From positions 14,870,213 through 14,934,212 of the forward strand of contig OZ234493.1 in the NCBI GenBank assembly GCA_965153455.1: a stretch of 64,000 bases of DNA. The letters are read 5' to 3'. Positions 9,712 to 52,204 of this stretch are shown here, piece by piece. The first letter of the stretch is position 1. Each line of letters begins with the position of its first letter. This DNA is from Sphagnum compactum (taxonomy: Eukaryota). The position numbers and the translations under genes are program-made. The notes under the pieces are model-generated. The model searched no databases. It saw nothing but the letters and a program-made list of their open reading frames with translations, and had not been told where the DNA came from.

Positions 9712-10249
9712 AATCAATTTGTGAACAGCAGCAGATGATCGGCAGTAGTGCTGCAGCTCCTCCCCTCCTCCTTCAGCTCCTCCTGCTACAGCAAACAAAG
9801 CCCACTGGTATAGACGTCGTTGTAGCCACAAACGAAGCCTTGAAGATGATGAAAAAGAAGTTCAGGAGGGACAGCAGCGATGAAATAATGTGCAGGGGAA
9901 GAAGCAAGTGAATCAAGAGCCAAACTGCAAAGGAGCTAGAATGAAGTCAAGCATGTACAGATTTACATATTATGTATCGGAGTCGTGATAGGATGCTTGC
10001 CGATTCTTGCACACCATATATTATGTTGTAGGGAGTTGGAGCAGGAATAAAGTGAAAATGTTATTTTCAGGGAGCTAGCCACTAGTCCTACTGTGTGTAG
10101 CTGCAAAACTTGAAGACGGGACATTGGTCCGGATATTGGTCACTGTAGCAAGTCTGTTGTCATTTGTTAGTCGAGGATTCCTCCGTGTCAAGATCATGTA
10201 ATGAGAGAGTTTGGTGCTCTCTTGCACCCCGCACCTGTACCCAACAAGA

Positions 10250-19139: not shown

Positions 19140-19151
19140 ATATATATATAT
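19140..19151 (-). promoter_or_regulatory. TATA-like box upstream of copy 2
   Basis: (TA)n run ~215 bp 5' of the ATG, beyond a pyrimidine-rich leader on the coding strand. Its position matches the TATA-like segment in the other copies. Confidence 0.45.
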
Positions 19152-19197
19152 CCCATGATGAACATATTCATCATTCAGACTGGTCGCAAAGACAAGT

Positions 19198-19458
19198 CAT
19201 GGGGGTGCAAAGAAAGAGGTACTCAGCCTGTTGGCTTGGCGGCCCCACTCATGACCTGACACTTCATTGGGTGGCCCGGGAATCAAGCAAAACAGGGGGT
19301 TGCAACTAAGGAGATACTCAGCCGTAGCGTTGGCGGGCCCACCCATCACCTGATACAGCTCCGGGCGGCCGGTAGAATGGTTCGGGTTCTCTGAATGGGT
19401 GGGACCTCCAACCCAAAAGGCTGAGTACCTCCTCCTTTGCAACTCCCTGATTTTGCTT
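19198..19458. repeat. Imperfect inverted repeat / MITE with a duplicated left arm
   Basis: Arms aagcaaaacagggggttgcaa..tactcagcc..cccacccat (19285-19346) and the reverse complement at 19393-19458. An extra direct copy lies at 19198-19260 and another fragment at ~40655-40701. Confidence 0.75.
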
Positions 19459-21099: not shown

Positions 21100-21790
21100 A
21101 ATATTACTTAATACTTGGTGGTCACCATGTGACAAAGAGTCACAATGGAGGACTCAACAAGATTTGAGGGAATTAAAAACATTCCAAGCAAAAAAGGGCT
21201 CAAGAAAATAATCTGAATATTATGTGGATCACAAAAGAAAAAATGAATAGAACTAAAACATGGTGGTCACTAAGTGATAAAGTGTGAAAATGGAGGACTC
21301 AAAATGATTAGAAGGATTTTTAAAAGTTCCAAAGTAAAATAGGGCTCAAAAAGATAATATGAATATTGTGTAGATCACAAAAGAAAAAATGAAATAGAAC
21401 TAAGACATGGTGGTCATTAAGTGATAAAGAATGAGAATGGAGGACTCAAAAGGATTAGAAGGATTATTGAAAATTTCAAAGTAAAATAGGGCTCAAAAAG
21501 ATAATATGAATATTGTGTAGATCACAAAAATAAAAATGAAATAGATATAAAACCTCATGGTCACCAAGTGATAAGAAGTGAAAATGGAAGACTCAAAAGG
21601 ATTAGAAAGATTTTTAAAAATTCCAAAGTAAAAGAGGGTTCAGGAGGATAATATGAAATTGTATAGATCACAAAAGTTAAAATGAAATAGAACTAAAACT
21701 TGGTGGTCACCAGGTGATAAAAAATGGAAATGGAGGATTCACAAGGATCTAAGGGATTCAAAATATCCAAATTAAAAGAGCACTCATGAA
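21100..21790. repeat. ~147-bp tandem repeat, ~4.5 copies
   Basis: (t)ggtggtcac.aagtga anchor at ~21115, 21260, 21407, 21555 and 21700, with conserved atggaggactcaaaaggattagaagga and gggctcaaaaagataatatgaatattg blocks. Confidence 0.9.
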
Positions 21791-32779: not shown

Positions 32780-34740
32780 TACAGCTAGGAGAAAACATGT
32801 AATGGAAAGTGGCTCTGGAAGTGGACTCTAGAGTTGCAGTGGACCACTGCAAAAGTGCCCTAAAGAAAGGAAGGCCAATCTGGGTCTGCAAAGGGTGGAA
32901 AGTACCTATTGATGAAGAAGAAACTCAAGTTAGAATTTTCCGGTGTAATTTGGGGGGCACCTTACCTTCAGTAAAATTTTGGCTTACCTTTCGATTTTGT
33001 CTTTCCATGCTAAAGTTATCTTTCGGATGAGTTTCAAAACATAGGTATATTGCACAGGGAGTATAATCCAGCCTCGCTCAAATGAATCACAGTCGTCTGA
33101 TATAAAACAATAAGTTTCTTATTTCTTTCCAATGGATAAGGACTAAGGATCTCAAAGGGGACCATTTAGAGAATTCAGGTCCCACACTCAAGAGGTCTCC
33201 CGGCTCCTGCAGAGCCCTCATTCCCAGAACCGTTCTCTGTCCTTACCCTACTGTCCGACCCTACTAGGCAAAGAACATGATCACAAAGTTGGGATTGGAA
33301 TGCAGCAGATGTGAATGGATGGTATTTGTACACTACTTGGATCACTCTTGATCAAGGGTGATGAGGATTGCAGGAGTTGACAGTTTGGGAAGCAATGTAG
33401 GTTTGACTTGACAGTTTCGGAAGCCAGCCACAGTGTTAGGGAAGAATTTGCTGTGCAGAGATTGAGAGTTGGGTGAGAGTAGAGCTAGAGGTCATGCAGA
33501 TTCGTGGGTAAGATATGGCTTGCTGCTTAATTCGGGTGGCTTGGACTCAGTCCTTTCTGCTGTTGAACCCGTAACAGGTTTCTACTACAGGTACTTCTTT
33601 ACACCTCCATACCCCTTGAACTACAATTTTTCCTTGAATCTTCTGGTGAACAATGCCAACATGACTCTAAATCTATGAAGGATCCATGATGTTCTGTTGT
33701 AATAGTTCTTTTGTTTCCATCAAACAAATTTGATGTAGGTTATGACTTTTGACTGCATCTTGCATCCCTTGTCTTACTTCTACACTAGGTGATTGTTTGT
33801 GATGCCTCAAGAAGCCAGAGCGATGGTAGCCAAGGAAGAAATTGGTGTGACGATTGGGGCAATAGCAGGAATATCACCAGTGTTGGTGCATTCTTAATAG
33901 AAGGATTGGCACAAGCATTTGTGTGATGCATCACTTGAAACTGATGCAAAACACAAGAGGGCAATTGAATTTGGCAAAATGCCTACAGAGCTTGCCAAGG
34001 TATGGCTATGTCTGAAGCCCCTGAGTTTGCGGCAGAAAGGTAAGGAAGCAGAAAATGCACTTCAAATGCTAGGTAAACTGGTCTGCATTGCCAGTTTAGG
34101 GATTGGTGTGGTGGACAAGTCTTTGTTAGATTTAAAGCTCCATAATGGGAGTCATTTTGTCATGTGCAGTCTTTGATGAGATTTAAGCTCATTGAGATTC
34201 AAGACATGACTGTGGTGCAGTGACGCACTGGGCACCAAAGCTGTCTGGCATGTACCCCACACACAATGACCCATGAATTACAATTGTGGTACATTGGCCA
34301 AGAAACTCTTGACCTTGAAGCTGCCTAACAAAACAGGGTCCAAAGGGGAGTTTAACATAGATTTGGGGTGCATGTTCCAGGCAGCTATGCTGGAGGATAT
34401 GGTGAAGCAAATGGGCTACAAGTCCTCTCGTTTGGCAGTCATATTCTTAAGTAGTAGTTGGTGCAATTAGGGTTAATACAGATGTGATTGCTAAGCATTT
34501 CCTGCAGGAAGAAGAGGGAGGTACTTACAACCATGTAGCTTCTTTTCCATTTCTGCAACTCTATTTGCTAGGGAAGCATCTGATCATGACTATTATGACA
34601 TCAACCATGCCGAACACTTGAGTTCTCTGTAATGAAACTGCAACATCTGCTACAACATTACAGTTTGTTGAATCATAATGAACACAGGCAGATTTTTTAA
34701 TTGTAGTTGGATGGTACAGAATCTTTCCTCTGTGAAGGGT
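32780..34740 (+). pseudogene. Unknown decayed ORF ('CPWCS' family), copy 3, without LINE
   Basis: Fragments 32809-33030, 33469-33678, 33919-34176 and 34273-34470 align at the protein level with copy 4 (AVEP.T...YRYF.TPPYPLNYNFSLNLLVNNANMTL; GKLVCIASLG.GVVDKSLLDLKLHN; AMLEDMVKQ.GYKSS.LAVIFL.SSWC). Stops and frameshifts present. Confidence 0.55.
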
Positions 34741-36209
34741 TCAAAAAGCATCCCTGTGGGTATCCTCCAGGTATCACAGGAAAAGTTGAAAAATGAGAAT
34801 GAGCCCAGTGCTTTGACCTCAGTAAGGCCTCAAGCCTGTGGCCTCAGCCTTTACCCTACACAAATGAATGCCAGGATTGCAAATTGCAGAACAGGTACTG
34901 ACTGGTTAGGACTCTACTGGATCCGTAAAGAAGACTTAACTATGTTTACCTGGTGTGATCCGTCTAGTGGAATACAGGCCCACAGCCTACGGAACAAAGT
35001 TTTGCAAGAATCAGTTGGGCTTTCAGTAGACATGCCAAAAATTCTCTTATTCTCTTTTATACAATTTGATATGGGATTTTATAGAATTTGGTCCACACTG
35101 ACATTTATGCAATAATGACAAGTGCAAAAGGAATTTCTTTAATACCCCAAAAACCTGCTACTAAAATCTGAATCAAAGTCTCTTTTTCTCCTTTAACCTT
35201 AAGATCTTATGAGTAACAGGCACTTAGAGTGCACATGTGAGGGCTTGGAACCCACAATGGGTTGCAAACTGGTCATGAGGCAAGACAACAACTATGGCTA
35301 TTGCAGATCAACAAGAATCAAGCCTGGCAAGTTGCAAAAGATCAAAACTGTATTCAAGTTCAAGGATCTGGAGCTCGAGGTTTACTTCTTGCACATGGAC
35401 TGCAATCTTGCACAGTACAAGGAGAGCTGGAGAGGAGGACAGAGGAGAACACTCACAGTAAAGATTAGGGCTGGACTGCAAGAGAATCAGGGTGCCAGTG
35501 TTAGTCGGTTGTCAGAAATGGCACCAGATGACCGGCGGTTATCATGACAGTTCTACAGGATATATAACCATGGAACTTCTCAAAAAAATGCAAAATAACC
35601 GGATTCTGCCAGACACCCCACGGTCATTAAAACCATCTACGAAGCGGTCCTGATACATAACCGCAGTTCTCAGAAAACCAAGAACCGAATCTGATATATA
35701 ACTGCAGTTCTCACAAAAATCTATGAACCTGTCAAAATTCTGATACTTTCCCTGTTATTCCCTGAAAACCGCAGGTTCTTTCTAGGGTTTTAAAAGAAGA
35801 AACCAGAGGTTTCTCGATTCCAAACAAATTCAAAATAACCCAAACTTCAGGTTCTTAGATTCTTTAAATTTTCAAAAGCTCTAGAACCAGAGGCTCTTTG
35901 ATTTCTAAATTTCATACAACCAGAAACCGAAGATAATTTGGAAAAATCGAATAACTGACCAAACCTGGTTCTCATCTGGTTACCAAGCAGAATAATTAGC
36001 ATAATTTCCACCCACAGCTTTAGGGGCCCCAAAGAAGCAGATGGGAGCCCAAAACCGGTTCTCAGAAGATACAGGGATTTGTGACAAGCCCTAGGGGTCT
36101 CTAATAAATTTCTCAGCATTTGTTTGGGATAACAGTTTGGGAAACAAATCTGTAGACCTGGCAGCAGCTTTATTGAAGATGAGAGCGGATGCCGCAAATA
36201 GACATCAGA

Positions 36210-37143
36210 TCAGCCTGGTAGATTCTTCAGCGTTCCTGACGTGGGAACCGAATTCGGAATGGAATTGTGAAGCTAATCCTGCGCTCGATCACTGATCAGA
36301 TGCATGCTAGTTAGTTAGAGACCAACTAATAAAGCGAACTCCTCGACACTCAATCTGCAAGCTCAACTCATATATTTTCACAACAGTATTGCTGGCTTCG
36401 ACTAAGCTCACAGGCCGCCTGACTCGGATCTATACAATAGACTTTTAAGTTGCCCTGAACTTCATCAGCTATTTCACTTTTACATTCTCCTCGTCTGCAT
36501 TCCCGCCTTCTGCAGTTCCTGCAAATTAAGAGGGTCGAGTAGTAGTACCATTAGAAAAAAAATTATGGGTCAATAACAATCATGGTTACGTTGGGTGCTC
36601 GCATGACAGCAGGCATAGGGGGTACCCACAAGAATCTCTGGTTCACATGGTTGGTTCGTCTCAAATCGCGGGGAATTGATTCTAGACGCTATGATCATGT
36701 ACAGGACATATTTTGTACAAGTTCAATCTCTGGAAGTTTACAATTTCTCAAAACTAATCGATCACACAGACTTAGTATCTCAAGTGTTTAATCTAGTACT
36801 TACCCATGATTTCTCCAATCCTTGATGATACACGTGATGATGCATTGGGTTCGACTACGACTGCCTGCAACTGAGCGTCATGGGGAGGGATGACAATTGT
36901 TTCCCGCCCATGTGGAACAAACTCTCGAGTAAGCTTGAGAAGATATCGGAGGAGTTTTACCGATTCTTTTGCCAGTCGCACTAAGAGCACGAGACTCAGG
37001 AAAACCAGGATCAGAACTTCCGCATGGGGATCATCAACATCGAACTGCGGGCTTGGAATCAGCAGCTGGAGCTCATGGCTGGAGCTGGTCACCGGTGCCA
37101 TGAGTCGAGGAGGACGTGATCCCGAGCTGGGTGGAGACTTCAT
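36210..37143 (-). CDS. Small single-hydrophobic-segment protein, copy 3 (exon 1 37143-36804, exon 2 36235-36210; 121 aa)
   Basis: Open exon 1, donor G|GTAAGT, inferred acceptor cccacgtcag, exon 2 GTLKNLPG* ending at the homologous TGA. 340+26 nt = 122 codons. Confidence 0.65.
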
Positions 37144-37291
37144 AATCAATTTGTGAGCAGAAGCAGATGATCGACGGTAGTGCTGCAGCTCCTCCCCTCC
37201 TCCTGCAGCTTGTCCTGCAACAGCAAACAAAGCTCACTGGTAAAGACGTCGTTGTAGCCACAAAAGAAGCCTTGAAGATGAAGAAGGAAAA

Positions 37292-37685
37292 GCAGGATGA
37301 AGCACAAGCACTTATGCTTGCTCTATTTGTAGACCCTAGGAAAGTTTTCCTAGAACATCCTGTAACGTCGTTTTTTTCTAGTTGACTAACTGGGCGGGCC
37401 CTATCAGGATAAATTACGAAGGAATCCTTGATTTAGACCCTAGGAAAGTTTTCCTAGAACATCCTGTAACGTCGTTTTTTTCTAGTTGACTAACTGGGCG
37501 GGCCCTATCAGGATAAATTACCAAGGAATCCTTGATTTAGACAAATCAAGGATTCCTTGGTAATTTATCCTGATAGGGCCCGCCCAGTTAGTCAACTAGA
37601 AAAAAACGACGTTACAGGATGTTCTAGGAAAACTTTCCTAGGGTCTACAAATAGAGCAAGCATAAGTGCTTGTGCTTTATCCTGC
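37292..37685. repeat. Fold-back inverted repeat (143-bp arms, 4-nt loop) with a 104-bp tandem duplication in the left arm
   Basis: 37435-37538 is the exact reverse complement of 37543-37646, with loop agac. 37331-37434 is a tandem copy with one mismatch. Outer arm 37292-37330 pairs with 37647-37685 with one mismatch. Confidence 0.97.
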
Positions 37686-37791
37686 CCTTTGCTTGCTTCC
37701 TTGAAGATAAATTTTCACTTTATTCCCGCTCCAACTAGTTGCAACATAATATATGGTATGAAAAAAGCTGCAAGCACACTGTCATGACTCC

Positions 37792-37799
37792 TATAAATA
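37792..37799 (+). promoter_or_regulatory. TATAAATA within the inverted promoter segment (copy 3)
   Basis: Segment 37690-37825 is the reverse-complement homolog of 9945-10080. The same motif is at 51859-51866. Confidence 0.5.
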
Positions 37800-39659
37800 A
37801 TATGTAAATTTGTAGAGGCTTGAGGCTTGAGCCCTGGGGTGGGGGCAATCTCAAATAAGCTACAGCCCTGCCCAGCTCAGCACATTTTGGGAATATCCCC
37901 CACGTGTTAGCAGCCTCACTCAACTTGAATCAGGGTTTCTTTGAGGATTTTGTCATGCAGTCAAAGTGGCGATCATCCAGAAAATAATTTAGCCAAATTT
38001 GGCTACATGTTAGATATGAAAGTAGAAAAAAAAAAGAACCTATGTTGTCTACGTTGTCTTGTGGCTACCTACTAGAAGTTATCATAAAATTCTGATGATT
38101 TGAATTTTTTAGCTTCTTCGAAATCTGGTGAATTCTGGTCATTTCTTTTCCGTGAAAATTCCTTTGCATAGGTCGAAATTTGGCGAAAACTTGCCAGTAA
38201 AAGAAATGCTGACTCAAAGCATGAGGCAAAACCTTACAGTAAGCCAAAACAAATCCAGACTCCCAGGGCATAGGGGTGTGAGGGATCTTATGCCTAGTAT
38301 TTGTGGATCAGGAGGGTCCAATCTATGCCTACCTCTTTAACCCTCCTCTTTTCTAGGAGGTGCATTTCAGGGGGTATACTTGGGGCCAGTGTGTTTTTTA
38401 TTTTTTAATTTTTAGAAATTAAAAAAAATCCAATTTTGTAGGGTAGCAACAGAGGCCAGCATCCCCAGACAGATTTTGACTTAATTAGATGATGTGACTC
38501 CTGAGTTCAAATTTATTTATTTTGTCTTGCAACGAGCTGCTTTGATTTGCCCATCACTGAAAAAATGAAACTATGGAGGCTCTCCAAAATAGAAAGTTCT
38601 GTTTTGAAGTATAGAGTTCATCCCCTTTGGCGCACCTATATAGGTGAAAGGAGGACAACATTTGCCAAAACATATGGGATAAAAGTGAGGTGCTATGAAG
38701 AACATGTTAGGGAACACATTGAGAACTTGGGGAACACATTGGGAACCCATTGAGAACTTGAACGTAAGCTAGTGGGAACACATTGGGAACCAAGGAAGAA
38801 TGAAAAAAAATCCCTGCCCCCCTCCCCCCAAAACTTAAAAGGAAAAAAAGCAAGGCACCTTGCGTGCATGCTCGGGCCTTCCCATTGGCTGCATCAAATT
38901 TCTCTTCCCAAAAGAGTTCGTCACCATTTTCGGCCTGGGCTAATACCCCTTGCACAGAACACCCTACCCATTAAATCATGAATCTAGTGGAGAGACCTGT
39001 AGCAACCACCACCCAAAAAAGAAAATTTTGCAATTTAAAAATTAAAAAAACAATTTGGCAAAAAAGTGAATCAGTGTTGCCAAATGACTATCTGAGGTCA
39101 ATGATATATTTTTCAATTTTCTGATGTTGCATCATTGGCTAGCATCCCAAGAGGGATTTAACATTAATTGGCAACCTATCCAAATAATAAGAAAATTATT
39201 TTTCATAATGCTTCCAAACTAAAATCAGAGTCCAAATGTGGTGAAAATTTTACAACTTTTTTTTTGGAAGTTTGATTATTGTTCCCAATCAAAGAGAAAA
39301 TATTGTGACTGAACATGCTTTTTTTAAAAACATTTCACATTTTGACAAATTTTTACACCGAAAAAAATGATGCTGGAGGCCCTCCAAATACACATAGGAA
39401 ATTTCTCCAAGTGCTTTATTGTATTATACAAGCATTTACGTACCTTAAAGGTTATATGTGAAGCTTGGTGTCTCAATTCTTCTATTTTTTTATGTCCTTT
39501 GAATCTTGATCTCTTGATCGGTGTTTTCATTTCTTTCATTTTTTGATCTTGAAAATTTGGCAAAATTGGTCATTCTTTGTACCCAAATTTGCAATTGGTT
39601 TGGAAATAAAAATCATATGCCACTTGAATTTGATTCAACATAAAAGTTATTGTATTTTA

Positions 39660-39970
39660 TTGGCCTTGCGTACCAAGGCAAGGATATTGTGTTTAGATTC
39701 ATTTTAGAGTATACTAGCTTATGGGATTTTGGCCCCTATGTAATAGGTCTGTTTTTATATGAGGATTGGAAAAGATGATATTTTGGCTTGTATTGAAACT
39801 TGAGAGTTGTTATAGAATTATAATATCTTGAGGGATTTTGATTTGTTTTAGAGGATTTTTTGAAGATTATATTTTTGCATAGTGAAATATTTGAGTTTCC
39901 ATAATTCTTCTTTTGCCTTAAGATACTTTTTATTGTAAATGGCAAGGCCACAGTGTGACACACCCCTTGT
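39660..39970. mobile_element. ~310-bp MITE-like repeat (tggccttgc...gcaaggcca); inverted copy at 49730-50047
   Basis: The reverse complement aligns end to end with 49730-50047 (inside the copy-4 intron). Short terminal inverted repeats present. Confidence 0.75.
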
Positions 39971-42058
39971 TAATTTTGTTTTGATTGAAAATATACGAGA
40001 TATTTATAATACTTGGGCTCTGTGTTGTTGTGCACTACTAAAGACAATCAATTGTCCAAAAAAAATGATTAATGACATTGCATGCAATTTGAATTCAAAT
40101 TTGATTAAATGAGATGCAAATGGATGCAATAAAGCATTGAAAGTTTGCTCGCAACTATGCTGTTGAAAAAATAATCTTGAAACGACACTTTTTCATTGCT
40201 TTTTATTTTAAAATGACTAAATAAATTTCCATTTGAAATTGTCCAAAGAACGACTTATAAAACCTAAAATTGTCCTACCTAAAACTAGTTCCAATGAATC
40301 ATAGACAGGTGGATAGCCACCAAAGCTTTTAGCACCTCGACATACTTATCAAAACAGTACAATTTAAATGTCTGAAAATTTCAGGACTCTTCTGATAATT
40401 TGAATTTTCAAGGTCTTAAATCACTTTTATTTTCAAATCGATCAAAAGTGGCCATACTTTTATTATTGGACTAACATGTATCTAGAGAGTAAAAGTTCCT
40501 CATTATATAAGGTCCAGTGTCTTTTGTACCAAACATGCCGTGTACATTTTGTGGATGGTTTTCCATCCTTGTGTGTATATATATGTATATATACAGGTCT
40601 CTGTTGTTTGTACCAAACATCTGCAAATCTCAATTCATATGACTGAAATATAGAAAGAGATACTCAGCCCGTTGCGTGGGTGGCCCCACCGATAAACCTG
40701 AATCCTTAACATCAGGAGTAATCTGAACCGCACGCTGGGGATGGCGTGTCACTTAAGGAAAATATGTTTGAAATTTCCACACTGAGCAACAACAGACGTC
40801 CTCTTCTGGTAGCAGCTGTGTAGCTTGACTTTCAGTTCATGGAGCCCTAAAACCTTTCACTGAAAATTATGTATCAAAGGGGCAACCTTCCCAACCACAA
40901 TTTCTGGCTCTTGGATATTTTTCATTATTCCCGTAGAGAGGGGAGATTATTGACACATCTATCTATGAAGGAAGGTAGTTTGTTTTGTGGTTATGAGATC
41001 CACCAAACCGGGACGCTTCAGATTGTGTTCTTGATGTCTTTGGGAAGCTCTCGACGAGGAGGGGTGCATGCGCTTGGTTCCATGACATTTGGACTTGCTG
41101 TGCAACAGTTCTTGAATAATGAATGATTTCAGCACTGAAAATTAAATTAAATCAGAGCTGAAAATTTGGGAGGAATTGGAATGTGCCTTTGGTGTTGTTG
41201 GAAAGAAAGATCTTGACAAGCAGGATTTAATGAATTTTTTTGGGTAAGATTTGGATTCAGCGTAGTGGAAGGGCACCTTACAAGGTGTAATATGTGGTTC
41301 GACAGAGATGGGTGTTTTGACAAATAAAATGCCTGCTCTACAGGCATTTTGTTTTCTGAAATGCTCATCCTTGTTATCTCCTACCTAGTATCTGACAGGT
41401 ACCTACAAGGTATTGTGAGAATTGATTTTTATGAATAAATCTAGTGTGACAATTTTTATGCCATTTGAAGCCCTTGAGGGTGAGCTTTACAGGAATCTGG
41501 CGCACAGTCAGGTCCGTCTCACAGGGCCCTTCCCTTATTCCCGTAATGCCCACCCCCCAAAGGCTTTTAGCCTACACTAGTTACAGCTAGGAGAAAACAT
41601 GTAATGGAAAGTGGCAGCAGAAGTAGATTCTAGAGTGGCAGTGACCACTGGAAAGGTGCTCTAAAGAAAGGGAGACCAATCTGGGTCTGCAATGGGTGGA
41701 AATTTTGATGTAGAAGAAACTCAGGGTAGAATTTTCCCAGTGTAATTGGAGAGCACCTTACCTTCAATGAAATTTTGGCTTACCTCTTGATTTTGTCTTT
41801 CCATGCTAAAGTTATTTTCTGACAGGTTTTAAAACTAGATATATTGCACAGAGAGAATAATACTGCATTACTCCAATGACAACAGCCATCCAATATAAAA
41901 GAAAATTGTTTCCTATTTCTTTCCAAAGGGTAAGGACGAAGGATCTCAAAGGGTCATTATGGAGAATTCAGGTCCCTCACTCAAGAGGACTCCTGCCTGC
42001 TGCTGAGCCCTCATTCCCAGAACAGCCCCATATTCACTCTCCTTACCCTACACATCGG

Positions 42059-45000
42059 TCACCCAATCGGTGGAAGAGAGAGGGGGACGAATCGAAGCTT
42101 CCCCCTCGGTGAGGAAACTATCCGATCACTCGCCCCTCTCCATCTCGATCTGGGGGTCACAACGGCCAGCGCCAGGTAATCGCCTGCATTACTTCGACCT
42201 CTCTCTTCTGGGAGAAGAAAGGGGGAAGAAGGACATGTTGGAAGCGTGGGCCGGAGCTCACCCCCCTCCTGACACCCACGACCACAGTTTTGACTGGCCG
42301 GCCTGGCTAGAAACAGCCACGGGCCGGGTAATGCGCTGCAACGCGCGCCTCTCGAAAGAGAAAAGGAAAGCGCGGGGAGCTTGCATCAGAGCCTGTTCAA
42401 AAAAGATTCAGCTGGCCGAAGCCCAGCTGCAATCGAACCCGGCCAACACAAAAATCCGAGACATACTCTCGGATGCACAGGAGAAGCTAGCAGGAATCTT
42501 CCAGAGCTCTGTAGAGAGGAACCACCACCTCACCTCCTCCAGCTGGTTGAGATATGGCGACACCTGCTCCAAATCATTCTTCGACTTCCACCGAGTCGGA
42601 AAGAAAAAAACGCTCCTCCGGGAGCTCGAAACAGAGGAGGGATCAATCGGGGGTCAGAGTGATCTGGCCCTCTACGTTACTAGCTTCTACGCCAAGCTCT
42701 ACACCTCGGACGCCGAGGCCCCAGGAACGAAGGAGGCGCAAGAGGTATGCTGGCAGAGTGTCCCGCGCAAGGCAACACCAGCTATGAACGAGAGATTGGT
42801 CAAGGACCTCTCCTTAAAAGACATTTCAGAAGCGATCAGAGCGCTTCCCAAAGGAAAGGCCCCAGGACACGACGGCATCCCGATAGAGTTCTTCCAGGAA
42901 CTCGAAGCGGAAATTGCCCCCACCTTGCTCCTCGCATACACGGCCATGCTCAGGTCCGGAGCAACATCAACTTTCATAAATAAGGGGATCATCACCCTTA
43001 TCCCCAAATCCGGGGACAGAGCTAAACTGAACAACTGGAGGCCGATCACCCTCCTCGGCAGCATCTACAAAATCCTAGCTAAAACCCTCGCGAACAGACT
43101 CCGGTCGGAACTCAATGAGGTCATCAGACCCAACCAGACCGGATTCGTTGAGGGTAGGTGCATTTTGGACAATGTGTTCATGGCCCAGGAGGGCCTTACC
43201 TGGGCGGAAGAGAGCAACCAGGACCTGGTGCTCCTCCTTCTGGACTTCAAAAAAGCCTTTGACCGCATAGAATGGGGATTCCTATTCAAGGCCCTGGAAC
43301 AACTAAGATTCTGCCAGACCTGGGTGAACTGGGTCACCTCCCTCTACCGGGAGGCCACCTCAACCATCAAGATAAACGGGGCCTCTGGCCCTGACTTCCA
43401 GCTCCAGAGGTCAGTGAGGCAGGGCTGCCCATTAGCTCCCTACCTCTTTATCCTCGCCACTGACGTCCTCGGACACATGCTGGACGACCCCAAGTTCGGA
43501 GTCGAAGGTCTCTCACTTCCCAGGGGAGGCCTGCTAAGAGACCAGACCTTTGCCGATGACACGGCACTTTACCTGCAGGGCTCACCAGCTAACCTTGACA
43601 GGACTCAGGAGGTTCTCAGAACTTTCTGTCGAGCATCAGGAGCCAAGGTTAACTGGTCGAAATCAGCGGCCATCTGGGCCAGTCAGAGAGAGAAACCCTG
43701 GAAGTGGGGTGAAGAGGAGGGGCTAAAATGGATCCCGAAAGGAAAAGGCACGAGATACCTAGGTATCCAGGTCGGATTTCACCTCCCCACGAAGGCTAAC
43801 TTCGACATAATGATGTTGTCGCTCAAAAGCAAGCTCATCTCCTGGAGCCACAACACGCTCTCCTTGGCAGGAAGGATTCTGGTCGCGAACCAGGTCCTCC
43901 TCGCTTCGACCTGGTACCTAGCCGCCTGCTGGAACCCGGACCCCAGGATGAGTAACCAGGTCAGAGGCCTGGTAAGGAATTTCATCTGGGGGGAAAGGAG
44001 GCCCCCACTCGAGCGAAAGTCAAGTGGGAAACGCTTGCTCTTCCCCTAGCACAAGGAGGGCTGGGGGTCACCGACCCCAAGTCGCAATTGGAGGCCCTTC
44101 TCGCCAAACTCTTGGTAAGAGGGCTTGCCCCCGGGGGGGAGCCATGGAAAGAACTGGTCTAGCACAACGCAGGCCGGACGCAACTCCCACGCCACGGCAA
44201 AGGCCCCTCCACTCCGGATATGAATTGGTTACTCGCGGCCCCCAAACTGAAACGCCTGAAATGCTCAATGTGGAGGAGCATCGTGGAAGCCTGGATCAAT
44301 GCGAGGTCGGGCCTGTGCAAAGCAGACCCAACCTCCCCAGCGGAAATTCTCCGCCAGCCTATCTTTGGCAACCAGTCCATCCTAAACCAGAGAAGAGTCC
44401 CACTGGGCGTAGGAGGCCAGAGAGAAGGAAACTCTTTCGCTCAAGTCGGGCACACCAGAGTCAAGGACTTCTGGAACAACTCGACGAGAGGATGGAAGAG
44501 CCTAACCACCCTCGGCATGAGCCATCACCCCTCCAACAGGGAATGCAGGGAGAGGATCGTCTCAAGCATTCCCTGGAGACCGGACGAACTCGAAGACCAA
44601 ACTCGGGTGGGCGACTGGATCGCCAACCTAGCCCCCCCCGCTGGCAACCCCCTAGACTGGGTATATCTTGTTCTCGCTAAGGAAGGAGACACCGCCACGG
44701 TTCTCGAATTCAAAAAAACCTCGACCAGCAGCCGCATCCAGCTGTCGTCCAACCAGGCTATCAAGATCTCCACCATCAACCACCAGCCCATCAGAGTGCT
44801 CTCACAAGAGAACCCCAAGGCGACACTCAAGGTGGCCAGGGACCCCCCGGCCCCCGACAAAAAAGCTTTGCTCTACTGGATCTTCGACTCCGGCCTTATC
44901 CAAAACCTACCATGGGATCCAGGGGAATGGCACTGGCAACCAAGCCCCCCCTTGGGAGACGCCCCCTTCTTCGGCTACTCGGCGAAAAGGGGATATTCCA

Positions 45001-45782
45001 GCATCCGCAAATCCGCCCACATGTCGAGCATGGCCACTTTTCTTAAAGACCTCAACCTTCGCAACTCCACCACGACCCAGCTGACGGCCAGGATCTGGCA
45101 CAGCGCGCGCCCACGGAAGGTGGGCACGCTCATCTGGCTTATCTTAAACAATGGACTCCTGGTCGGGACCTGGCTCCGGACGATGGGCCTCCCCTCGCTC
45201 TGCAAGGTCTGCGATGCCAACAAAGAAGAATCGCCCCAACATTGCCTCCTGGAGTGCGATATGGCCCAACGCGCCTGGGACGCCTACAAACGAATCTGGT
45301 CGAAATGGCACTCGCCAGACAGCCCTGAAATCACCTGGCCCTTTGTCCTCTTGGGCGAAGCCACCATTGAGCAAGAGGACGACCCACTGGGGCGTCTGGC
45401 TTACCACGTCGGCGGATTCACCTACCCCAGACAACCACTGGACATTCTGCGTAGCTTAATTGTCTATAGACTCTGGACTGAAAGGTGTAGGAAACACTAT
45501 GAAAATAAGTACTCTCTCACCGCGGTCCTCACCCAGGCCTGGGTGGCCACCGTTGAGGTTGGTATGGCCTCCTGGAAAGCCATTAAATCTCAGCGGCCCA
45601 CCAAGGACCCGGACACTCAAGCTAGTATTGAGTCTGAGTTTAGGAAAGAATGGCTCCACAGGAGCATCATGGGGACGGATAGCGCCACCATCCGGTGGCA
45701 CTTCCCCCCCCCCTTGTATTTCACCAATTTAATTATTGAATGATGATGGGGCTGCTGCCTCCCTCCCCGTCTGGGGTTTCTC
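42059..45782 (+). mobile_element. 5'-truncated L1-type non-LTR retrotransposon (LINE) with 18-bp TSD
   Basis: TSD ccttaccctacacatcgg at 42041-42058 and 45783-45800. The empty paralogous site is at ~33241-33270. Sharp GC-rich boundaries. Confidence 0.96.
42070..45743 (+). pseudogene. LINE ORF2: endonuclease tail, reverse transcriptase, C-terminal CCHC zinc finger
   Basis: SDHSPL (end of APE endonuclease), KAPGHDG, NWRPITLL, LDFKKAFDR, VRQGCPLAP, FADDT, RYLG and CKVC..EESPQHCLLEC. One frameshift at the G-run ~43988-43992 (continuing AKVKWETLALPLAQGGLG) and one TAG at 44160-44162. Confidence 0.95.
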
Positions 45783-48700
45783 CCTTACCCTACACATCGG
45801 ACCCTACTAGGCAAAGAACATGATCACACAGTTGGGATTGGAATGTGGCAGACGTGAATGGATGGTATTTTGTATAATACTTGGATCACTCTTGATCAAG
45901 GGAGATGAGCATTGCAGGAGTTGACAGTTTGGGAGGCAATGTAGGTTTGACTTGACAGCTTGGGAAGCCAGCCAGAGTGTTAGGGAATACTTTGCTGTGC
46001 AGAGATGGAGGGTTGGGTGAGAGTAGAGCTAAAGGTCATGCAGGTTCATGGGTAAGTATCAAAGGAACTCCTGTATATTATGTTGTGGAAGAGAGATTGG
46101 AGCTTTGAGAGTCTGAGTAGCCATCAGAGAGTAGATATGGCTTGCTGCATAATTGGGGTGGGCTTGGACTCAGCAGTCCTTTGTGCTGTTGAACCCATCA
46201 CAGACTACTGCTACAGGTACTTCATTACACCTCCATACCCCTTGAACTACAATTTTTCCTTGAATCTTCTGGTGAATAATGCCAACATGACTCTACACCC
46301 GTGAAGGATCCATGATGTTCTGTTGTAATGGTTTTTTTGTTTCATCTTTTGTGGCAAATTTAATGTAGGTTATGACTTTTGACTGCATCCTGCATCCCTT
46401 GTCTTGTTTCTGCACTGGGTGGTTGTTTGTGATGGCTCGAGAAGCGGAAGTGATTGTAGCCGAGGAACAAATTGGTGTGAAGATTGGGGCAATAGCAGGA
46501 ATATCACCAGTGTTGGTGTACTCCTAATAGAAGGATTGGCAAAAGCATTTGTGCATGATGCGTCACACAAAACTGATGCAAAACACAAGAGTGGCAATTG
46601 AACTTGGCAACATGCCTACAGAGCTTGCCAACGTCTGGCTATGTCTGAAGCTCTTGAGTTTGCAGCAGAATGCAAGGATCCAGAAAATGCACATCAAATG
46701 ATAGGTAAGCTGGTCTGCATTGCCAGTTTAGGGTTTGGTGTGGTGGACAAGTCTTTGTTGGATTTAAAGCTCCATAATAGGAGGCATTTTGTCCTGTGCA
46801 CTTTGATGAGATTCAAGACATGCCCATGGTGCAGTGACCCACGGGGCACCAAAGCTGTTTGCCATGTACCCCACACACAATGACCCGTGTACTACAGTTG
46901 TGGTACAATGGCCAACAAGCCCTTGAGCTTGAAGCTGCCTAACAAAACAAGGTCCAAAGTGGAGTTTGATATAGATTTGGGGCGCATGTTCCAGCCAGCT
47001 ATGTTAGAGGATATGGTGAAGCAAACAGGTTACAAGTCCTCTATTTTGGCAGTCATATTCTTAGGTAGTAGTTGGTGCCAGTGGGGTTGATGTAGATGTG
47101 ATTGCTGAGCATTTCCTGCAGGAAGAAGAGGGAGGTACTTACAACCATGTAGCTTCTTTTCCATCTCTGCAACTCTATTTGCTGGTAAGCAGCTGATCAT
47201 GACTACTATGACATCAACTATGCTAAACACTAGAGTTCTCTGCAATGAAACTGGAGCGCCTCCTACAACACTACAGTTTTTCAAATCATAATGCACACAG
47301 GCAGATTCTTTTAGTGTAGTTGGACAATGCCTTACTGCCCAGAAATTTTCCTCCACAAAGGGTTCAAAGAACTTAATGGCAGTTTTGTTTTTCAAAGCAC
47401 TTGCTTTTGGCTTCTACCCTGTGATACACAACGCGTGTCCTCCAGGTATCACAGGAAAAAAATTTAAACTAACATCCACCCAGTGCTTTGCTCTCAGTAA
47501 AGCCTGAAGCTTGCGGCCTCAGCCTTTATCCTAAACAAATAAATGCCAGGATTGCAAATTGCAGAACAGGTACTGAATGGTTAGGACTCTACTTGATCCA
47601 AAGAGAGGACTTTACTATGTTTACCTGGTGTGATCTGTCTGGTGGAATAGAGACCCACAGACAACCGACCAAAGTTTTGCAAGAATCAGTTGGGCTTTCA
47701 GTAAATATTCATGTTCTCTGTACAAGTGTGTGTTTTTTATACAATTTGCTATGGGATTTTATAGAATTTGGTCCAAGCTGACGTTTACGCGTTAATTGAC
47801 AAGTGGAAAAAGAATTTGTTAAATACCCCAAAAACCTGCTACTAAAAACTGCATCAAAGTCTCTTTTTCTCCCTTAACCTTAAGATCCTAGGAGTAACAG
47901 GCACTTAAAGTGCAGATGTGAGGGCTTGGAACGCACAACCAGTTGCAAACTGGTCATGAGGCAAGCCAACAACTATGGCTGTTGCATATCAACAAGAATC
48001 AAGCCTGGCAAGGTGCAAAAAATCAAACTGTATTCAAGTTGAAGGATCTGGAGCTTGAGGTTTACTTCCTGAACATGAACTGCAATCCAGATTGCTTCAC
48101 AATTGAGAAGCAGGACAAGGAGAGCTGGAGAGGACAGAGGAGAACACTCCCAGTAAACATTAGGGCTGGACTGGAAGAGAATTAGGGTCCTAGTGTTTGT
48201 CGGTTGTAAGAAATGGCACCAGATGACCAGCGGTTATCATGGCAGTTCGTTAGGATATATAACCATGGGTTTTCGCCCAAAAAAACCAAATAACCGGATT
48301 CTGCCAGACACCCGCACAACCCTTAAAAGCATCTACGAAGCGGTCCTGATACATAACCGCAGTTCTCACAAGAATCTAGGAACCTGTCAAAATTCTGATA
48401 CTTTCCCTGTTATTCCCTGAAAACCGCAGGTTGTTTTTAGGGTTTAGAGGTTTCTCCATTACGGAACAACCTGGGAGAGAATTCTTAGTGTATTTATAGG
48501 GCAGATTACATTTAGTAATCAGGCTTTAGAAAAGAGTCCTACGGCGGAGGTCGTGAGATTGTAAGATCCCTAGGGCGCAGAATGTAAGCCAATACGATCT
48601 TTGGAAAGGAATTTTTTCCAAAAAAAACATTGATTGCCTCGGTTGTTACGCATGGCCTTACCCTGCTGTCAGGGAATTACTATGTGTACCTTGGGCTCTG

Positions 48701-49393
48701 CCCTCGGTGCTCATACAGGAATTCCCTGATAGCAGGGTCTTACACTAAACAAAAGAATTCCAAAAACCATAACTGAAGGTTTCTTTGATTCTAAAAATTT
48801 TCAGAAATTCTGGAAGCAAGAGGCTCTTTGATTTCTAGATTTCATAAAACCAGAAACCGGAGATAATTTGGAGATAACCGGAGCTTGGGTATTGTGCCTT
48901 GAACCTCAGGCTCCAACCTTGGCTCCAAGGGCATCAGCAGGGCCTTTCCTTTCCTACGCTTACACCGACTGAATCTTACACCTACTCCTTGAGAGTGAGA
49001 CGAATCTTACACCTACAAGTAGGCATAATTTCCCTCTCACTCTGAGCGTGAGATCTCTCCTCTCTTCTAGCAGAGAGATTTCCATGAGCGAGATTCATGG
49101 ATATAAGGTACCCTCCAAATTACTGTTTTTCTCAAGCAATATTGTCATTTTTTGGAGACGAAAATTTGGAAAATTATTCTAGTGTGAATTTTAACTGATA
49201 TTAATCTTTTTCTGTGTTAAGAATCGCCAAATATTCAATTCAAAAAATTGAAGAAAAAAGAAGAAAAAAACCTGCTTCAAACACACTACAAAATTTCTCC
49301 AAATCCTTGCAAGTTACTACCAAAAAAGCTTCCCCAAATTTTCTAGATCACCAGCGTTATTGAAGAAGAGAGCGGATCATGGTACCAATTAGA

Positions 49394-51058
49394 TCAGCTT
49401 GGTACTGAATTCAACGGTCCTGTGGGATGATCTGTAGAATGGAAATTACCAAGCTACTTTTTCACTGCCACTGAATCATTCCATGGATGCTAATTAGAGA
49501 CCAACTGATTTAAATTTAAAGAGGTCACTCACACGCAATCTGCAAGCTCAACTCATATCTACATACTAGTGTAGTTGACCCAGAGTGTGAACTGGTTACC
49601 CAACTAATTTTCCCTTCCAAAATTATGTTTATAATTTAAATCGATTGAATTGAACTTCCAATGACAAAAATTACTCAAAAATCAATATTTCTTGCACCTT
49701 GAAGAAATTAGAGTTACACAGATAGAAAAACAAGGGGTGGGTCACACTGTGGCCTTGCCATTTACTTTTTAAAATATCTTAAAGCAAAAGAAGACTTATG
49801 GAAACTCAAATATTTCACCATGCAAAAATATGATCTTCAAAAAATCCTCTAAAACAAACCAAAATCCTTCCAGATATTATAACTCTATAACTAATCTCAA
49901 GTCTCAACACAAGCCAAAATATGGTCTTTCAAAAATCCTTATATAAAAATATACCTATTATTATTACCTAGGGGCCAAAATCCCTTAAGCTGTTATACTC
50001 TATAATGAATCTAAACACAATATCCTTGCCTTGGTAGGCAAGGCCAACAAACTCCATCTCTACACAGTGATGCACAAGGTTTCCTTAGTTCCACAGAAAA
50101 GAAAAGATCAGAAGATCACCTAATTACACTGAACGTGCATGAGCATGCCAAAAAGTTTCTCTGTGATTTTATACAGATAACCAGGTCTGGAAACACAACT
50201 AAAAACCACACACAGAGGCCCCAAACAACAACAAGAAAGGGCCAAAACAAGAAGAAGAAAGAAGCAATGAACGGTCCAATGCCACCGAAGAAGCTAATCA
50301 GAAACACTAGCACACGCTGAGATGGCAACCAGCTGTCTGTCTGCAGGCAACTTGGACTTGGATCTGCTCAAGAGATGAATTTCAAATTGGCTTGAAGTTC
50401 ATCAGCAGCTATTCCACCTATTCCACCTTTATGTTATTCCCCTCATCTTGTAATGCATCCCCAGCTTCTGCAATTCCTGCGAAGACATGAATCCAGTAGC
50501 TCATGTAGTACCATCAGAAAACGAAGAGTGGGGGGCATTGATTTCTTCACACAGCTGTGATCATATGCAGGACCCTCATGACGCGACCATCATGCATGCA
50601 ACGTATTTGGCACAATCCCAACTGGCTGTGGAATTTTTACAATTTCTCAAAGCTATAATTAGTTAATCGATCACACAAGCTTAATATCTCAAGTGTTTAG
50701 TCTATTACTCACCCATGGCTTCTACAATCCTTGATGATACACCGCGTGATGACGTATTGGCTTCGACTACGACTGCCTGCAACTGAGCATCATGACCGGG
50801 AGGGATGACAATTGGCTCCCGCCCACGAGCAGCAAACTCTCGACGAATCTTCCGAAGGTATCGGAGGAGTTTTACCAATTCTCTTGCCAGTCGCAGTAAG
50901 AGCACGAGACTCAGGAAAACCAGGATCAGAACTTCCGCATGTGGATCATCAACATCGAACTGCGGGCTAGGAATCAGCAGCTGGAGCTCATGGCTCGAGC
51001 TGGTCACCGGTGCCATGAGTCGAGGAGGACGTGATCCCGAGCTGGGTGGAGACTTCAT
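49394..51058 (-). CDS. Small single-hydrophobic-segment protein, copy 4 (exon 1 51058-50713, exon 2 49431-49394; 127 aa)
   Basis: Open exon 1, donor G|GTGAGT, acceptor ttctacag, exon 2 DHPTGPLNSVPS*. 346+38 nt = 128 codons. Intron expanded by repeat insertions. Confidence 0.72.
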
Positions 51059-51220
51059 ATTCAATTTGTGAGCAGCAGCAGATGATCGACAGAGTGCTGC
51101 AGCTCCTCCCCTCCTCCTGCAGCTTGTCCTGCAACAGCAAACAAAGCTCACTGGTATAGACGTCGTTGTAGCCACAAAAGAAGCCTCGAAGATGAAGAAG
51201 AAGTTTGAGCAGAAGGACGC

Positions 51221-51802
51221 ACAACTTGAAGCGGGAATAAACTGAAAATTTATCTTCAAGGAAGCAAGCACAGGGCCTTGCAAGGGGACGCACAAGCAAA
51301 GTATGCTTGGAGGAGGTCTATTTCTACCCTAGAACCTCCCTAGGGAAGTTTGGGGAGGTTGGTGCGTGCAACAGTGGTGGCTGAAAGTTCGGGTTGCTGG
51401 GTGCAATGTTGGCCCACAAAGCTCAGCTTGAAAGGTGCAAAGTATGAGCTACAGGGTTGTGTGGGTCAAAGTGTGAGTCAAAGGGTTGTAGGGTTTGTAG
51501 GGTTGTGTGGGTCAAAGTAGCAGGGTTTGTAGGGTTGTGTGTAGGGTTTGTAGGGTTGTGTGGGTCAAAGTAGCTCATACTTTGCACCTTTCAAGCTGAG
51601 CTTTGTGGGCCAACATTGCACCCAGCAACCCGAACTTTCAGCCACCACTGTTGCACGCACCAACCTCTCCCAAACTTCCCTAGGGAGGTTCTAGGGTAGA
51701 AATAGACCTCCTCCAAGCATACTTTGCTTGTGCGTCCCCTTGCAAGGCCCTGTGCTTGCTTCCTTGAAGATAAATTTTCAGTTTATTCCCGCTTCAACTT
51801 GT
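51221..51802. repeat. Fold-back inverted repeat (~232-bp arms, 117-nt G-rich loop)
   Basis: 51221-51452 versus the reverse complement of 51570-51802 shows one 1-nt indel and one mismatch near the outer end. Loop 51453-51569 is built of agggtt(t)gt and gggtcaaagt units. Confidence 0.97.
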
Positions 51803-52204
51803 TACAACATAAAATATGGTATGAAAAAAGCCGCAAGCATCCTGTCTGTGATGACTCCTATAAATAATATGTAAATTTGTACAGGCTTCAGGCTTGAGCC
51901 CTGGGGTGGGGGCAATCTCAAAATAAGCTACGGCCCTGCCCAGCTCAGCACATCTTGGGAATATCCCCCACGTGTTAGCAGCCTCACTCAACTTGAAGCA
52001 GGGTTTCTTTAAGGATTTTGTCATGTAGTGGAAGTGGCGATCATCCAGAAAATAATTTAGCCAAATTTGGCTACATGTTAGATATGACAGTAAAAAAAAG
52101 ATGCATATTAGATGCATAAGTTGCTAATTACTAAAATAAATAAATTTTCACTTTTTGCCAAGACTTGGGTTCTTTCTTCTTGTACCTTTTTCTCCACCTT
52201 ATTT

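Follow-up and report, generated by a model that had tools for sequence, protein, structure and literature searches.

How two neighbouring paralogs can each carry a long, almost perfect palindrome at the same position upstream of the start codon, with outer arms that are related and inner arms that are not, is the question raised by the locus described here. It lies in a 64,000-nt stretch of Sphagnum nuclear DNA (the whole stretch analysed, hereafter the window), to which all coordinates refer; palindromes, loops and repeats are given without strand.

A small gene family with upstream palindromes

The palindromes accompany a two-exon ORF of ~131 aa (131-135 aa among related proteins) for which no Pfam family was found. 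Among 60 protein matches, all those that name an organism come from Sphagnum species, one JGI row giving only an enzyme label, and judging from these matches the family is restricted to Sphagnum; the putative 'membrane protein' label of an earlier note on this DNA has one hydrophobic stretch as its sole basis. dN/dS is high. Copies 3 and 4 are tandem paralogs on the minus strand. Exon 1 of copy 3 (36802-37143, ATG at 37143) holds 114 codons and exon 2 (36472-36519) the last 16 residues, and the intervening intron (36518-36802) is spliced out in RNA reads from a close relative; the copy-4 exons lie at 50711-51058 (ATG at 51058) and 50421-50477. A LINE retrotransposon with RVT_1 and zf-RVT domains (42051-45783, plus strand) is inserted in the copy-4 repeat unit outside the palindrome, and accounts for the unequal lengths of the repeat units. 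Copy 1 (9499-9711, minus strand) is a truncated pseudogene with an internal 13-codon duplication, and copy 2 (exon 1 at 18588-18926, minus strand) belongs to a divergent subfamily.

The copy-3 palindrome (37292-37685) begins 149 nt and the copy-4 palindrome (51221-51802) 163 nt upstream of the respective ATG. In copy 3, arms of 143 nt (37292-37434 and 37543-37685) are 99% alike; they consist of outer arms (37292-37329 and 37648-37685) and an inner unit, with inner arms of 105 nt (37434-37538 and 37543-37647) that are 100% identical and separated by a 4-nt loop (37539-37542). The left arm contains a tandem duplication (37330-37537) of two 104-nt units, 37330-37433 and 37434-37537, that are 99% identical, compared with one such unit in the right arm, and the motif 'tagac' is common to the duplication junction and the palindrome centre. 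In copy 4, the arm at 51221-51452 pairs with 51802-51570 over 233 nt at 99.1% identity around an asymmetric 117-nt loop (51453-51569) of degenerate telomere-like short repeats (agggtttgtagggttgtg...). Both copies scored 30/30 in a palindrome scan, compared with a maximum of 23/30 among 40 random 810-nt segments of the window. The outer arms of the two copies are homologous yet diverged, while a local alignment of their inner parts scored 14, a value matched or exceeded by 222 of 300 shuffles. Re-measurement thus bears out the coordinates, arm identity, spacing from the ATG and contrast between related outer and unrelated inner parts that the earlier note had described.

Beside each palindrome, on the side away from the gene, lies a promoter-like sequence, block B, which at copy 3 (37691-37823, plus strand, with TATAAATA at 37792-37799) and at copy 4 (51761-51888, plus strand, with TATAAATA at 51859-51866) points away from the gene; in copy 4, the outermost ~60 nt of each arm are the start of this block. 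At copy 1, block B (9947-10073, minus strand) has the mirror-image orientation, running in the same sense as the gene as promoter, then leader, then ATG, and no palindrome was found there (scan score 18/30). Copy 2 retains a decayed inverted repeat (19188-19459) with 65-nt arms at 80% identity, upstream of a TA-run TATA box at 19140-19151. The outer arms show homology to the TATA/TSS region of the copy-1 type in one MAFFT alignment, with a shared 9-mer.

The palindrome recurs upstream of family genes

Comparison of the window with 58 related metagenome loci yielded 44 distinct family upstream regions, in which a palindrome was called at a scan score of at least 26/30 (maximum 23 in 40 random controls). 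The related loci are contigs assembled from short metagenome reads and may be orthologs or paralogs, apparently from several Sphagnum species; since palindromes are hard to assemble, their arm identities and loop sequences may hold errors. A palindrome occupies the same upstream site in 28 of the 44 regions and in all three subfamilies, at roughly -130 to -760 from the ATG in the related loci, so that an inverted repeat lies within about 1 kb of the gene there as well as in the window. Under a stricter BLAST criterion, 11 palindromes were found in ~48 kb of family upstream DNA and none in ~251 kb of other DNA. The association of gene and inverted repeat that the earlier note had suspected therefore holds for 28 of the 44 distinct loci, with no instance in the other DNA that was sampled. 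The remaining 16 loci are without a palindrome; ORFs were intact at 20 loci and broken at 3 where the palindrome was present, and intact at 7 and broken at 4 where it was absent, with no significant association between palindrome presence and an intact ORF.

Library chimeras are known to produce perfect palindromes, and it might be argued that those described here were generated by such fold-back chimeras or by the assembler, particularly as none of the reads examined crosses a whole palindrome and Hi-C run X21 gave 0 reads over 36903-37840 (about 2% of the run was read). We consider an artefact highly improbable, because the same architecture occurs in two copies in the window and at 26 further distinct loci from independent short-read assemblies, and because copy-3 arm sequence was recovered in two independent DNA runs: in run X1 a contig matches 37543-37677 with 0 differences and starts exactly at the copy-3 centre, and in run X2 the copy-3 arm has depth in 30/30 bins. 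A contig boundary exactly at the centre is what a de Bruijn graph gives at a true palindrome, and copy-specific variants are mirrored in both arms. The artefact reading, named in the earlier note as an outcome that would overturn its view, was accordingly rejected.

Arms evolve in concert

Across 28 loci, 2394 of 2470 arm positions are paired (96.9%). Arm identity is 0.91 within a locus compared with 0.50 between loci, and over the outer-arm segment that the loci share, the nearest or tied-nearest relative of an arm is its own partner for 28 of 34 arms. Locus-specific substitutions and indels are mirrored in both arms, the indels for instance in L007, L009, L040 and copy 4 ('ggaggag'). Comparing arm with arm and paralog with paralog, as the earlier note had proposed, gave the same picture: the arms within copies 3 and 4 differ by <1%, whereas the flanks of the two copies differ by 7-11% and dS between the genes is 0.119. 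The arms have thus been kept alike since the duplication, as had been supposed.

Several features carry the signature of events at the DNA level. The spacers of L005 and L006 are identical at 92 of 106 positions in reverse complement compared with 56 in direct orientation, a single case of spacer inversion. In copy 4 the gene-side arm has gained ~76 nt of block B copied from the far arm, and the sequence letters place the return junction of this extension at 'ttgt', inside a 10-nt direct repeat; from the letters, too, L007 shows an independent outward extension of the gene-side palindrome that copies block B. The 'tagac' common to the copy-3 duplication junction and the copy-3 centre, and the composition of the arm mismatches given below, point the same way. 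Arm concert, spacer inversion and expansion at microhomology, which characterise inverted repeats maintained by template switching, are all present in this family.

An alternative interpretation, which develops the cis hairpin regulator and DCL substrate suggested in the earlier note, is that the inverted repeat is transcribed into long double-stranded RNA and processed into 21-24-nt siRNAs that control the adjacent gene through RdDM or chromatin looping; selection on this function would keep the stem paired but leave its letters free to vary. Inverted repeats next to Arabidopsis genes, reported to yield siRNAs and to change chromatin topology, provide a precedent (bioRxiv 10.1101/2022.07.05.498814; PMC11746138), and the palindrome has kept its position at 28 of the 44 distinct loci, with all three subfamilies represented, even though long palindromes are reported to be fragile (PMC7999016, PMC8053094); such persistence of a long perfect palindrome could be a sign of selection. 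The predicted stems are extremely stable: the modelled gene-sense RNA folds at -298 kcal/mol in copy 3 (z -36; 0 of 100 shuffles as good) and -481 kcal/mol in copy 4 (z -67; 0 of 20 shuffles as good). A cis hairpin would also be compatible with homogenisation of the DNA.

We nonetheless regard this reading as unlikely. Transversions make up 37 of the 76 arm mismatches at the 28 loci, more than any other class, and the rest divide into 21 G·T and 18 A·C, with no preference for G·U; multi-nucleotide indels common to both arms would be hard to make by compensatory point changes. In two sister subfamilies, the copy-1 and copy-2 types, the TATA box lies between the repeat and the gene, and given this position the palindrome is probably promoter DNA outside the mRNA. 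The one polyA RNA run yielded only 5 reads in all, with none upstream of exon 1 and hence 0 over leader or hairpin, and 16 of 44 distinct loci, 7 of them with intact ORFs, are without the palindrome. A search of curated RNA families gave no match at the gathering score; sub-threshold matches to miRNA precursors (62.7 bits, threshold 70) occurred on both strands, which is expected of any perfect hairpin.

A conserved frame around a replaced core

Conservation stops short of the palindrome centre. For copies 3 and 4, flanks and outer arms can be aligned with ~25-38 loci, whereas the inner 100-400 nt align with only 0-1, and none of 190 locus pairs shows homology that extends to the centre. Three pairs with 95-98% identity in both flanks (L017/L048, L006/copy 3 and copy 4/L023) still have unrelated cores, although conversion of coding regions among paralogs could have inflated flank identity. 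The expected nesting, in which the closer two loci are related the nearer to the centre their likeness should reach, can be made out by eye in L002, L017, L048 and L052 but is statistically weak over the 190 pairs (Spearman 0.13, P = 0.064). Loops are asymmetric and range from 4 to 140 nt. Two of the 28 loops (L002 and L020) contain exact telomere-type 11-mers, and the copy-4 loop is a degenerate array; with ~32 such motifs per 299 kb of background, enrichment in loops is only suggestive. In L002 each arm is built from copies of a ~33-nt unit, eight on one side and three on the other.

Conserved terminal repeats around a variable interior, as found here, are also a mark of MITE and fold-back elements. 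The palindrome might then be a non-autonomous DNA transposon of fold-back, MITE or hAT/MULE-like type that resides at this site, with the outer arms as terminal repeats and an interior rearranged through nested insertions or through excision followed by abortive gap repair. The arrangement resembles that of fold-back and Pack-type elements, the unit arrays of L002 are presumably reminiscent of FB elements, and the end of the copy-3 arm (caggatgaagc) has what we take to be a similarity to the Ac terminal repeat. We consider a resident transposon improbable. No target-site duplication was found at the palindrome boundaries of copy 3 (flanks aggaaaag and ccctttgc are not direct repeats), copy 4 or the family consensus, where the flanks instead read as a decayed continuation of the palindrome. 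All 26 outer-arm matches are located upstream of a family ATG. Searching 299 kb of sampled DNA gave no second match to the cores, and run X2 covers the copy-3 core at low depth (11-99, compared with ~30-65 in single-copy neighbours), core copy number being judged from contig depths of two runs and these 299 kb. Both flanks are homologous in all loci, which allows at most one ancient insertion, and transposition would then not account for the later turnover. A high-copy fold-back transposon with a target-site duplication, the other outcome that the earlier note had named as fatal to its view, was rejected on the lack of such a duplication, the low copy number in the DNA sampled and the gene linkage of all 26 outer-arm matches.

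Discussion

The palindrome recurs at one site, its arms change in concert, its spacer has inverted and its arms have spread outwards, and its core is low-copy and has been replaced between flanks that are 95-98% identical. The probable explanation, in our view, is an inherited promoter-proximal palindrome of a Sphagnum-specific small-ORF family that is homogenised at the DNA level and whose centre turns over fast. The ancestral layout would have been mirror-image block B, centre, block B with the TATA box, leader and ATG, as still seen in L046; on the line leading to copies 3 and 4, most of the gene-side block B was presumably lost, so that the palindrome abuts the leader. Arm likeness may have arisen from template switching during replication, from recombination between arms, or from both, the enzymology (template switch or gene conversion, and breakage at hairpin tips) being inferred, and selection on an RNA stem would be unnecessary to account for the arms. 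The unstable centre would take up insertions (filler DNA, telomere-like repeats and tandem duplications), lose sequence and flip, after which symmetry would be restored; these gains, losses and flips would give each paralog or ortholog its own inner arms inside shared outer arms. Sex-chromosome-type palindromes have gene-bearing arms of kilobases to megabases that undergo arm-to-arm gene conversion; this class was rejected for the Sphagnum structure, which has arms of at most 233 nt and no gene inside.

Each known system compared shares some of these features. Template switching between the arms of inverted repeats reportedly homogenises arms, inverts spacers and expands repeats in yeast and other lineages (PMC8604942, PMC13100816, PMC8794818; for quasipalindrome mutagenesis, PMC7202029), and Sphagnum is alike in arm homogenisation, in spacer inversion (L005/L006) and in spread at microhomology (copy 4); the yeast GRE2 case reportedly also lies in a promoter. 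The repeats in those cited accounts are short, whereas the Sphagnum arms are 100-233 nt, and, unlike the cases described there, the structure is inherited family-wide with a core of hundreds of nt replaced. In Arabidopsis, gene-adjacent inverted repeats such as Ea-IR are described as yielding 24-nt siRNAs and altering chromatin loops and expression (bioRxiv 10.1101/2022.07.05.498814; PMC11746138). As in Sphagnum, these are long inverted repeats a few hundred nt from a gene start and polymorphic between related loci, but they are described as transposon-derived, whereas the Sphagnum palindrome is low-copy and travels with its gene family. With fold-back and MITE transposons (reviewed in PMC12595863) it has in common near-perfect hairpin DNA, a conserved outer and variable inner part and some tandem sub-repeats (L002), and it differs in having no target-site duplication or dispersed copies in the sampled DNA and in flanks that are conserved with the gene. 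Long palindromes are reported to be cleaved at hairpin or cruciform tips and repaired with modification of the centre (PMC7999016, PMC8053094, PMC3315005), and telomerase is reported to add repeats at repaired breaks (PMC2246262, PMC7215372); the concentration of change at the centre, the asymmetric loops and the telomere-type motifs in Sphagnum are similar, but those studies describe loss or rearrangement, whereas the Sphagnum palindrome survives and regains its symmetry. Maize Sirevirus LTRs also carry palindromes in a cis-regulatory, promoter-type region, which have been linked in discussion to siRNA targeting (PMC4728375), but there the region is that of a retrotransposon LTR and not of a host gene family.

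A more speculative extension, which we think doubtful, is a self-renewing palindromic promoter, that is, a heritable fragile site kept by the gene family, at which tip breakage, patching with filler DNA or telomerase-added repeats and re-symmetrisation by template switching would make the palindrome grow and turn over from its centre and so give each paralog a private, perfectly paired core; such a core could be a bidirectional promoter element or a locus-specific source of hairpin siRNAs that switches family members on or off.

Long perfect palindromes are, to our knowledge, usually short-lived in eukaryotic genomes, and this Sphagnum site has kept one through the diversification of a gene family, apparently across several species, while its core was repeatedly replaced. 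Taken together, the family loci are a series of natural snapshots of how a palindrome breaks, is patched, regains symmetry, inverts and spreads outwards, events for which most other work has used engineered repeats in yeast and bacteria. If the palindrome neither feeds a small-RNA pathway nor shapes promoter activity, it would be a clear case of 'compensatory' stem evolution through DNA mechanics, not RNA-level selection, and a caution for structure-based RNA gene prediction. If it does either, it would offer individual regulation of near-identical paralogs in a keystone peat-forming plant.

Palindromes upstream of a Sphagnum gene family

The two long fold-backs proposed in the earlier note, upstream of copies 3 and 4 of the four small-ORF family members in the window, were recovered by a repeat finder and by self-BLAST at 37292-37685 and 51221-51802. 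The copy-3 arms (37292-37434 and 37543-37685) are 143 nt long and 99% complementary, with the innermost 105 nt 100% complementary across a 4-nt loop, and the left arm carries a tandem duplication of 104 nt (37330-37433 and 37434-37537). Those of copy 4 (51221-51452 against 51802-51570) are 233 nt long, 99.1% complementary and separated by a 117-nt loop. RNA folding in the gene sense was predicted at -298 kcal/mol (z -36) for copy 3 and -481 kcal/mol (z -67) for copy 4.

Metagenome contigs scanned with the family alignment gave 58 loci, all set with the gene on the plus strand; near-identical upstream regions were collapsed and those shorter than 690 nt dropped, so that 44 distinct regions remained, the four window copies among them. 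Each was scored by its best pair of 30-nt arms enclosing no more than 140 nt of loop; with 26/30 or more taken as positive, a palindrome was found in 28 of the 44 regions, while 40 random 810-nt segments of the window reached a maximum of 23. Under a stricter BLAST criterion, the ~48 kb upstream of family genes contained 11 palindromes and the other ~251 kb contained 0. The inverted repeat therefore belongs to the gene family and not just to copies 3 and 4, and the association of gene and palindrome suspected earlier is real. The gene-side boundary of the palindrome lies ~130-290 nt from the ATG, and its presence was not significantly associated with an intact ORF.

Two other origins had been named as fatal to this reading, an assembly artefact and a high-copy fold-back transposon with a target-site duplication, and neither was found. 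The structure is carried by independent assemblies and by two DNA runs; a Hi-C run (X21, ~2% read) placed 0 reads over 36903-37840 and is uninformative. No target-site duplication was present, each of the 26 matches to the outer arm is upstream of a family ATG, and the cores (inner arms plus centre) are unique in the 299-kb sample (window plus loci) from which, together with contig depths, their copy number was judged low. In DNA run X2, depth was 11-99 over the copy-3 core and 30-65 over neighbouring single-copy DNA. The terminal motif of the palindrome resembles a hAT-type terminus; membership of that group was rejected, a target-site duplication being absent. A short, very high-copy repeat does lie nearby at 37975-38041 (depth 14,651 in X2 and 254 in the second DNA run, X1, with neighbours in the tens). 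It holds a small palindrome, tagccaaatttggcta, is adjoined in reads by many different sequences, as for the end of a dispersed element, and has a 70% relative at 2581-2823.

The gene family and its surroundings

The window has the character of plant nuclear DNA and contains LINE fragments. The ORFs beside the hairpins start at ATG 37143 (copy 3) and 51058 (copy 4) on the minus strand. A protein search returned 60 matches, with Sphagnum in every match that names an organism. Annotated forms have 131-135 aa and two exons; exon 2 lies at 36472-36519 in copy 3 and 50421-50477 in copy 4, and the intron is confirmed by the spliced joint 36517>36803 in 5 polyA RNA reads, all that run X22 gave. Each of these reads differs from the window at several positions, so their source is a close paralog or strain, and none of them covers the hairpin. 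The protein matches no Pfam family, and its best Protein Atlas match (influenza M2-like small membrane proteins, score 0.76) is too weak to be of use. Since dN/dS is 0.59 between copies 3 and 4 (dS 0.119) and has a median of 0.85 over 508 pairs, constraint on the protein is, judged from these ratios, weak. Other named members are labelled hypothetical, unnamed or uncharacterised, except P0036 (JGI: GNAT acetyltransferase) and P0006, called 'ATP synthase protein MI25' in one source; the latter name looks like annotation carry-over, because P0006 has no recorded Pfam domain and the other labels are nearly all uninformative.

Copy 1 (9499-9711, minus strand) is a truncated pseudogene, in which an in-frame 13-codon duplication (YDPHAEVLILVFL twice) is followed by stop codons. 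A divergent subfamily is represented by copy 2 (18588-18926). The units of copies 3 and 4 (32479-38031 and 41272-52099) are in tandem, with an inverted pair of dispersed repeats (39656-39971 and 49729-50051; 323 nt, 87.6%) flanking the region between them. The copy-4 unit is interrupted at 42051-45783 (plus strand; bounds of 42007-45740 were also obtained) by a LINE that may be young; it is G+C-rich (56%, against about 35-45% around it), and its two long open frames (RVT_1, zf-RVT) measure 680 and 526 aa. A further fragment with RVT_1 occupies 12148-12540 (minus strand). Elsewhere, a fragment of eukaryotic large-subunit rRNA stands alone in intergenic DNA at 3473-3945 (plus strand), matching positions 2412-2985 of the 3401 in Rfam model RF02543 with 111.8 bits, and a tandem array at 21073-21786 has about five copies of a ~147-nt unit at 76-90% identity.

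Arms evolve in concert around private cores

Across the 28 palindrome-bearing loci, pairing holds at 2394 of 2470 aligned arm positions. For the outer-arm segment that most loci share, an arm's own partner is its nearest or tied-nearest relative for 28 of 34 arms, and identity is 0.91 within a locus versus 0.50 between loci. Both arms of a locus carry its particular indels, for example deletions of 9 nt (L007) and 3 nt (L040), insertions in three further loci (L009, L020 and L024), and 'ggaggag' in copy 4. The earlier note had held that arm identity was maintained or regenerated after duplication, and the comparison of arms with paralogs that it called for bears this out: the flanks of copies 3 and 4 are 7-11% apart, whereas each copy's own arms differ by at most 2 mismatches. 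Because the palindrome is common to copies 3 and 4 and to many relatives, it predates their split, and the near-identity of each copy's own arms therefore means that the arms have been homogenised since.

The frame is shared and the core is not. Some 25-38 loci align to the leader, outer arms and far flank of copies 3 and 4, compared with 0-1 over the inner 100-400 nt, and in the 299 kb the two cores had no other match except one of 33 nt (E 0.004). Among 20 loci of the copy-3 type, homology reaches the centre in none of 190 pairs, and cores are unrelated despite 95-98% identity of both flanks in L017/L048, L006/copy 3 and copy 4/L023. A common origin of the cores found no support, in agreement with the earlier view that the inner parts are unrelated: 222 of 300 shuffles reached the alignment score of the copy-3 unit with the copy-4 inner arm, and matches of these two to the copy-2 repeat were no better than shuffles (62/300 and 7/300, respectively). 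By eye, some clades (among L002, L017, L048 and L052) have successive outer layers in common and differ only innermost; such nesting was weak and not established when flank identity was compared with depth of shared sequence (rho 0.13, p 0.064).

Of the 28 cores, 10 contain the 7-mer GGGTCCA/TGGACCC (0.33 expected), although independent enrichment is not claimed, since several of these loci have common ancestry in that layer. TCP-site-like motifs similar to GGNCCCAC recur in otherwise unrelated cores and in the repeat units of copy 2; recurrence of both motifs partly reflects common ancestry of outer layers. TCP-site or telo-box promoter elements were rejected as a property of the cores on the same ground of common ancestry.

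The loops are 4 to 140 nt long and unrelated to one another. That of copy 4 is a degenerate array of telomere-type repeats, and exact plant telomere-type 11-mers occur in 2 of 28 loops (L002 and L020); with ~32 such motifs in the 299 kb, enrichment in loops is only suggestive. Such loops recall reported cases of telomerase-patched breaks (PMC2246262, PMC7215372) and of breakage at palindrome tips (PMC7999016, PMC8053094).

Apparent promoter position and a probable DNA-level process

Copies 3 and 4 have, on the far side of the hairpin and pointing away from the gene, a promoter-like block of 130 nt (block B), with TATAAATA at 37792-37799 and 51859-51866, respectively. Block B instead has the gene's own orientation in copy 1 and loci L044-L046, where the leader and ATG come after it. 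The complete mirror-image arrangement is seen in L046, running from inverted B through arms and loop to B with a TATA box, the leader and the ATG. The far side of the L046 palindrome (~-1200 to -400 from the ATG) consists of four tandem units, each comprising partial inverted block B, an arm and the loop; one unit holds ACCCTAAACCCTAAAC. In copy 2 and its relatives, a decayed repeat of their own precedes a TA-run TATA box, and MAFFT set the copy-3-type outer arm opposite the TATA/TSS stretch of the copy-1 type, which is weak evidence. Together, these layouts suggest that the palindrome is promoter DNA lying outside the mRNA leader, and that it probably arose by inverted duplication of sequence upstream of the gene itself. 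Beyond block B, a search for a divergent partner gene turned up nothing but short ORFs and a very high-copy repeat of ~60 nt.

The 76 arm mismatches, read on the gene strand, comprise 21 G·T, 18 A·C and 37 transversions, with no wobble preference. Because of this spectrum and the position of the palindrome, the hairpin-RNA regulator proposed earlier, a candidate only, seems somewhat less likely. Rfam returned nothing at gathering score on the hairpins, and sub-threshold miRNA matches were generic. The mirrored multi-base indels also fit arm-to-arm copying better than paired point changes. Three rearrangements match those reported for template switching between repeat arms (PMC8604942, PMC13100816, PMC8794818): loci L005 and L006, ~95% identical overall, differ in the orientation of a ~100-nt spacer; the gene-side arm of copy 4, and independently that of L007, has grown outward through a copy of the sequence that continues the far arm, with the return to the original sequence in copy 4 at 'ttgt' inside a 10-nt direct repeat; and the 104-nt duplication of copy 3 has 'tagac' at the unit junction and at the centre.

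Relation to known systems

The closest known process is template-switch or conversion-driven upkeep of inverted repeats. The closest known functional analogue is a gene-adjacent inverted repeat reported in Arabidopsis, and a function here is putative. Our literature search found no paper describing such promoter palindromes in Sphagnum. The case is unusual for its arm length, for a palindrome inherited throughout a gene family and for a core that is replaced very fast yet symmetrically.
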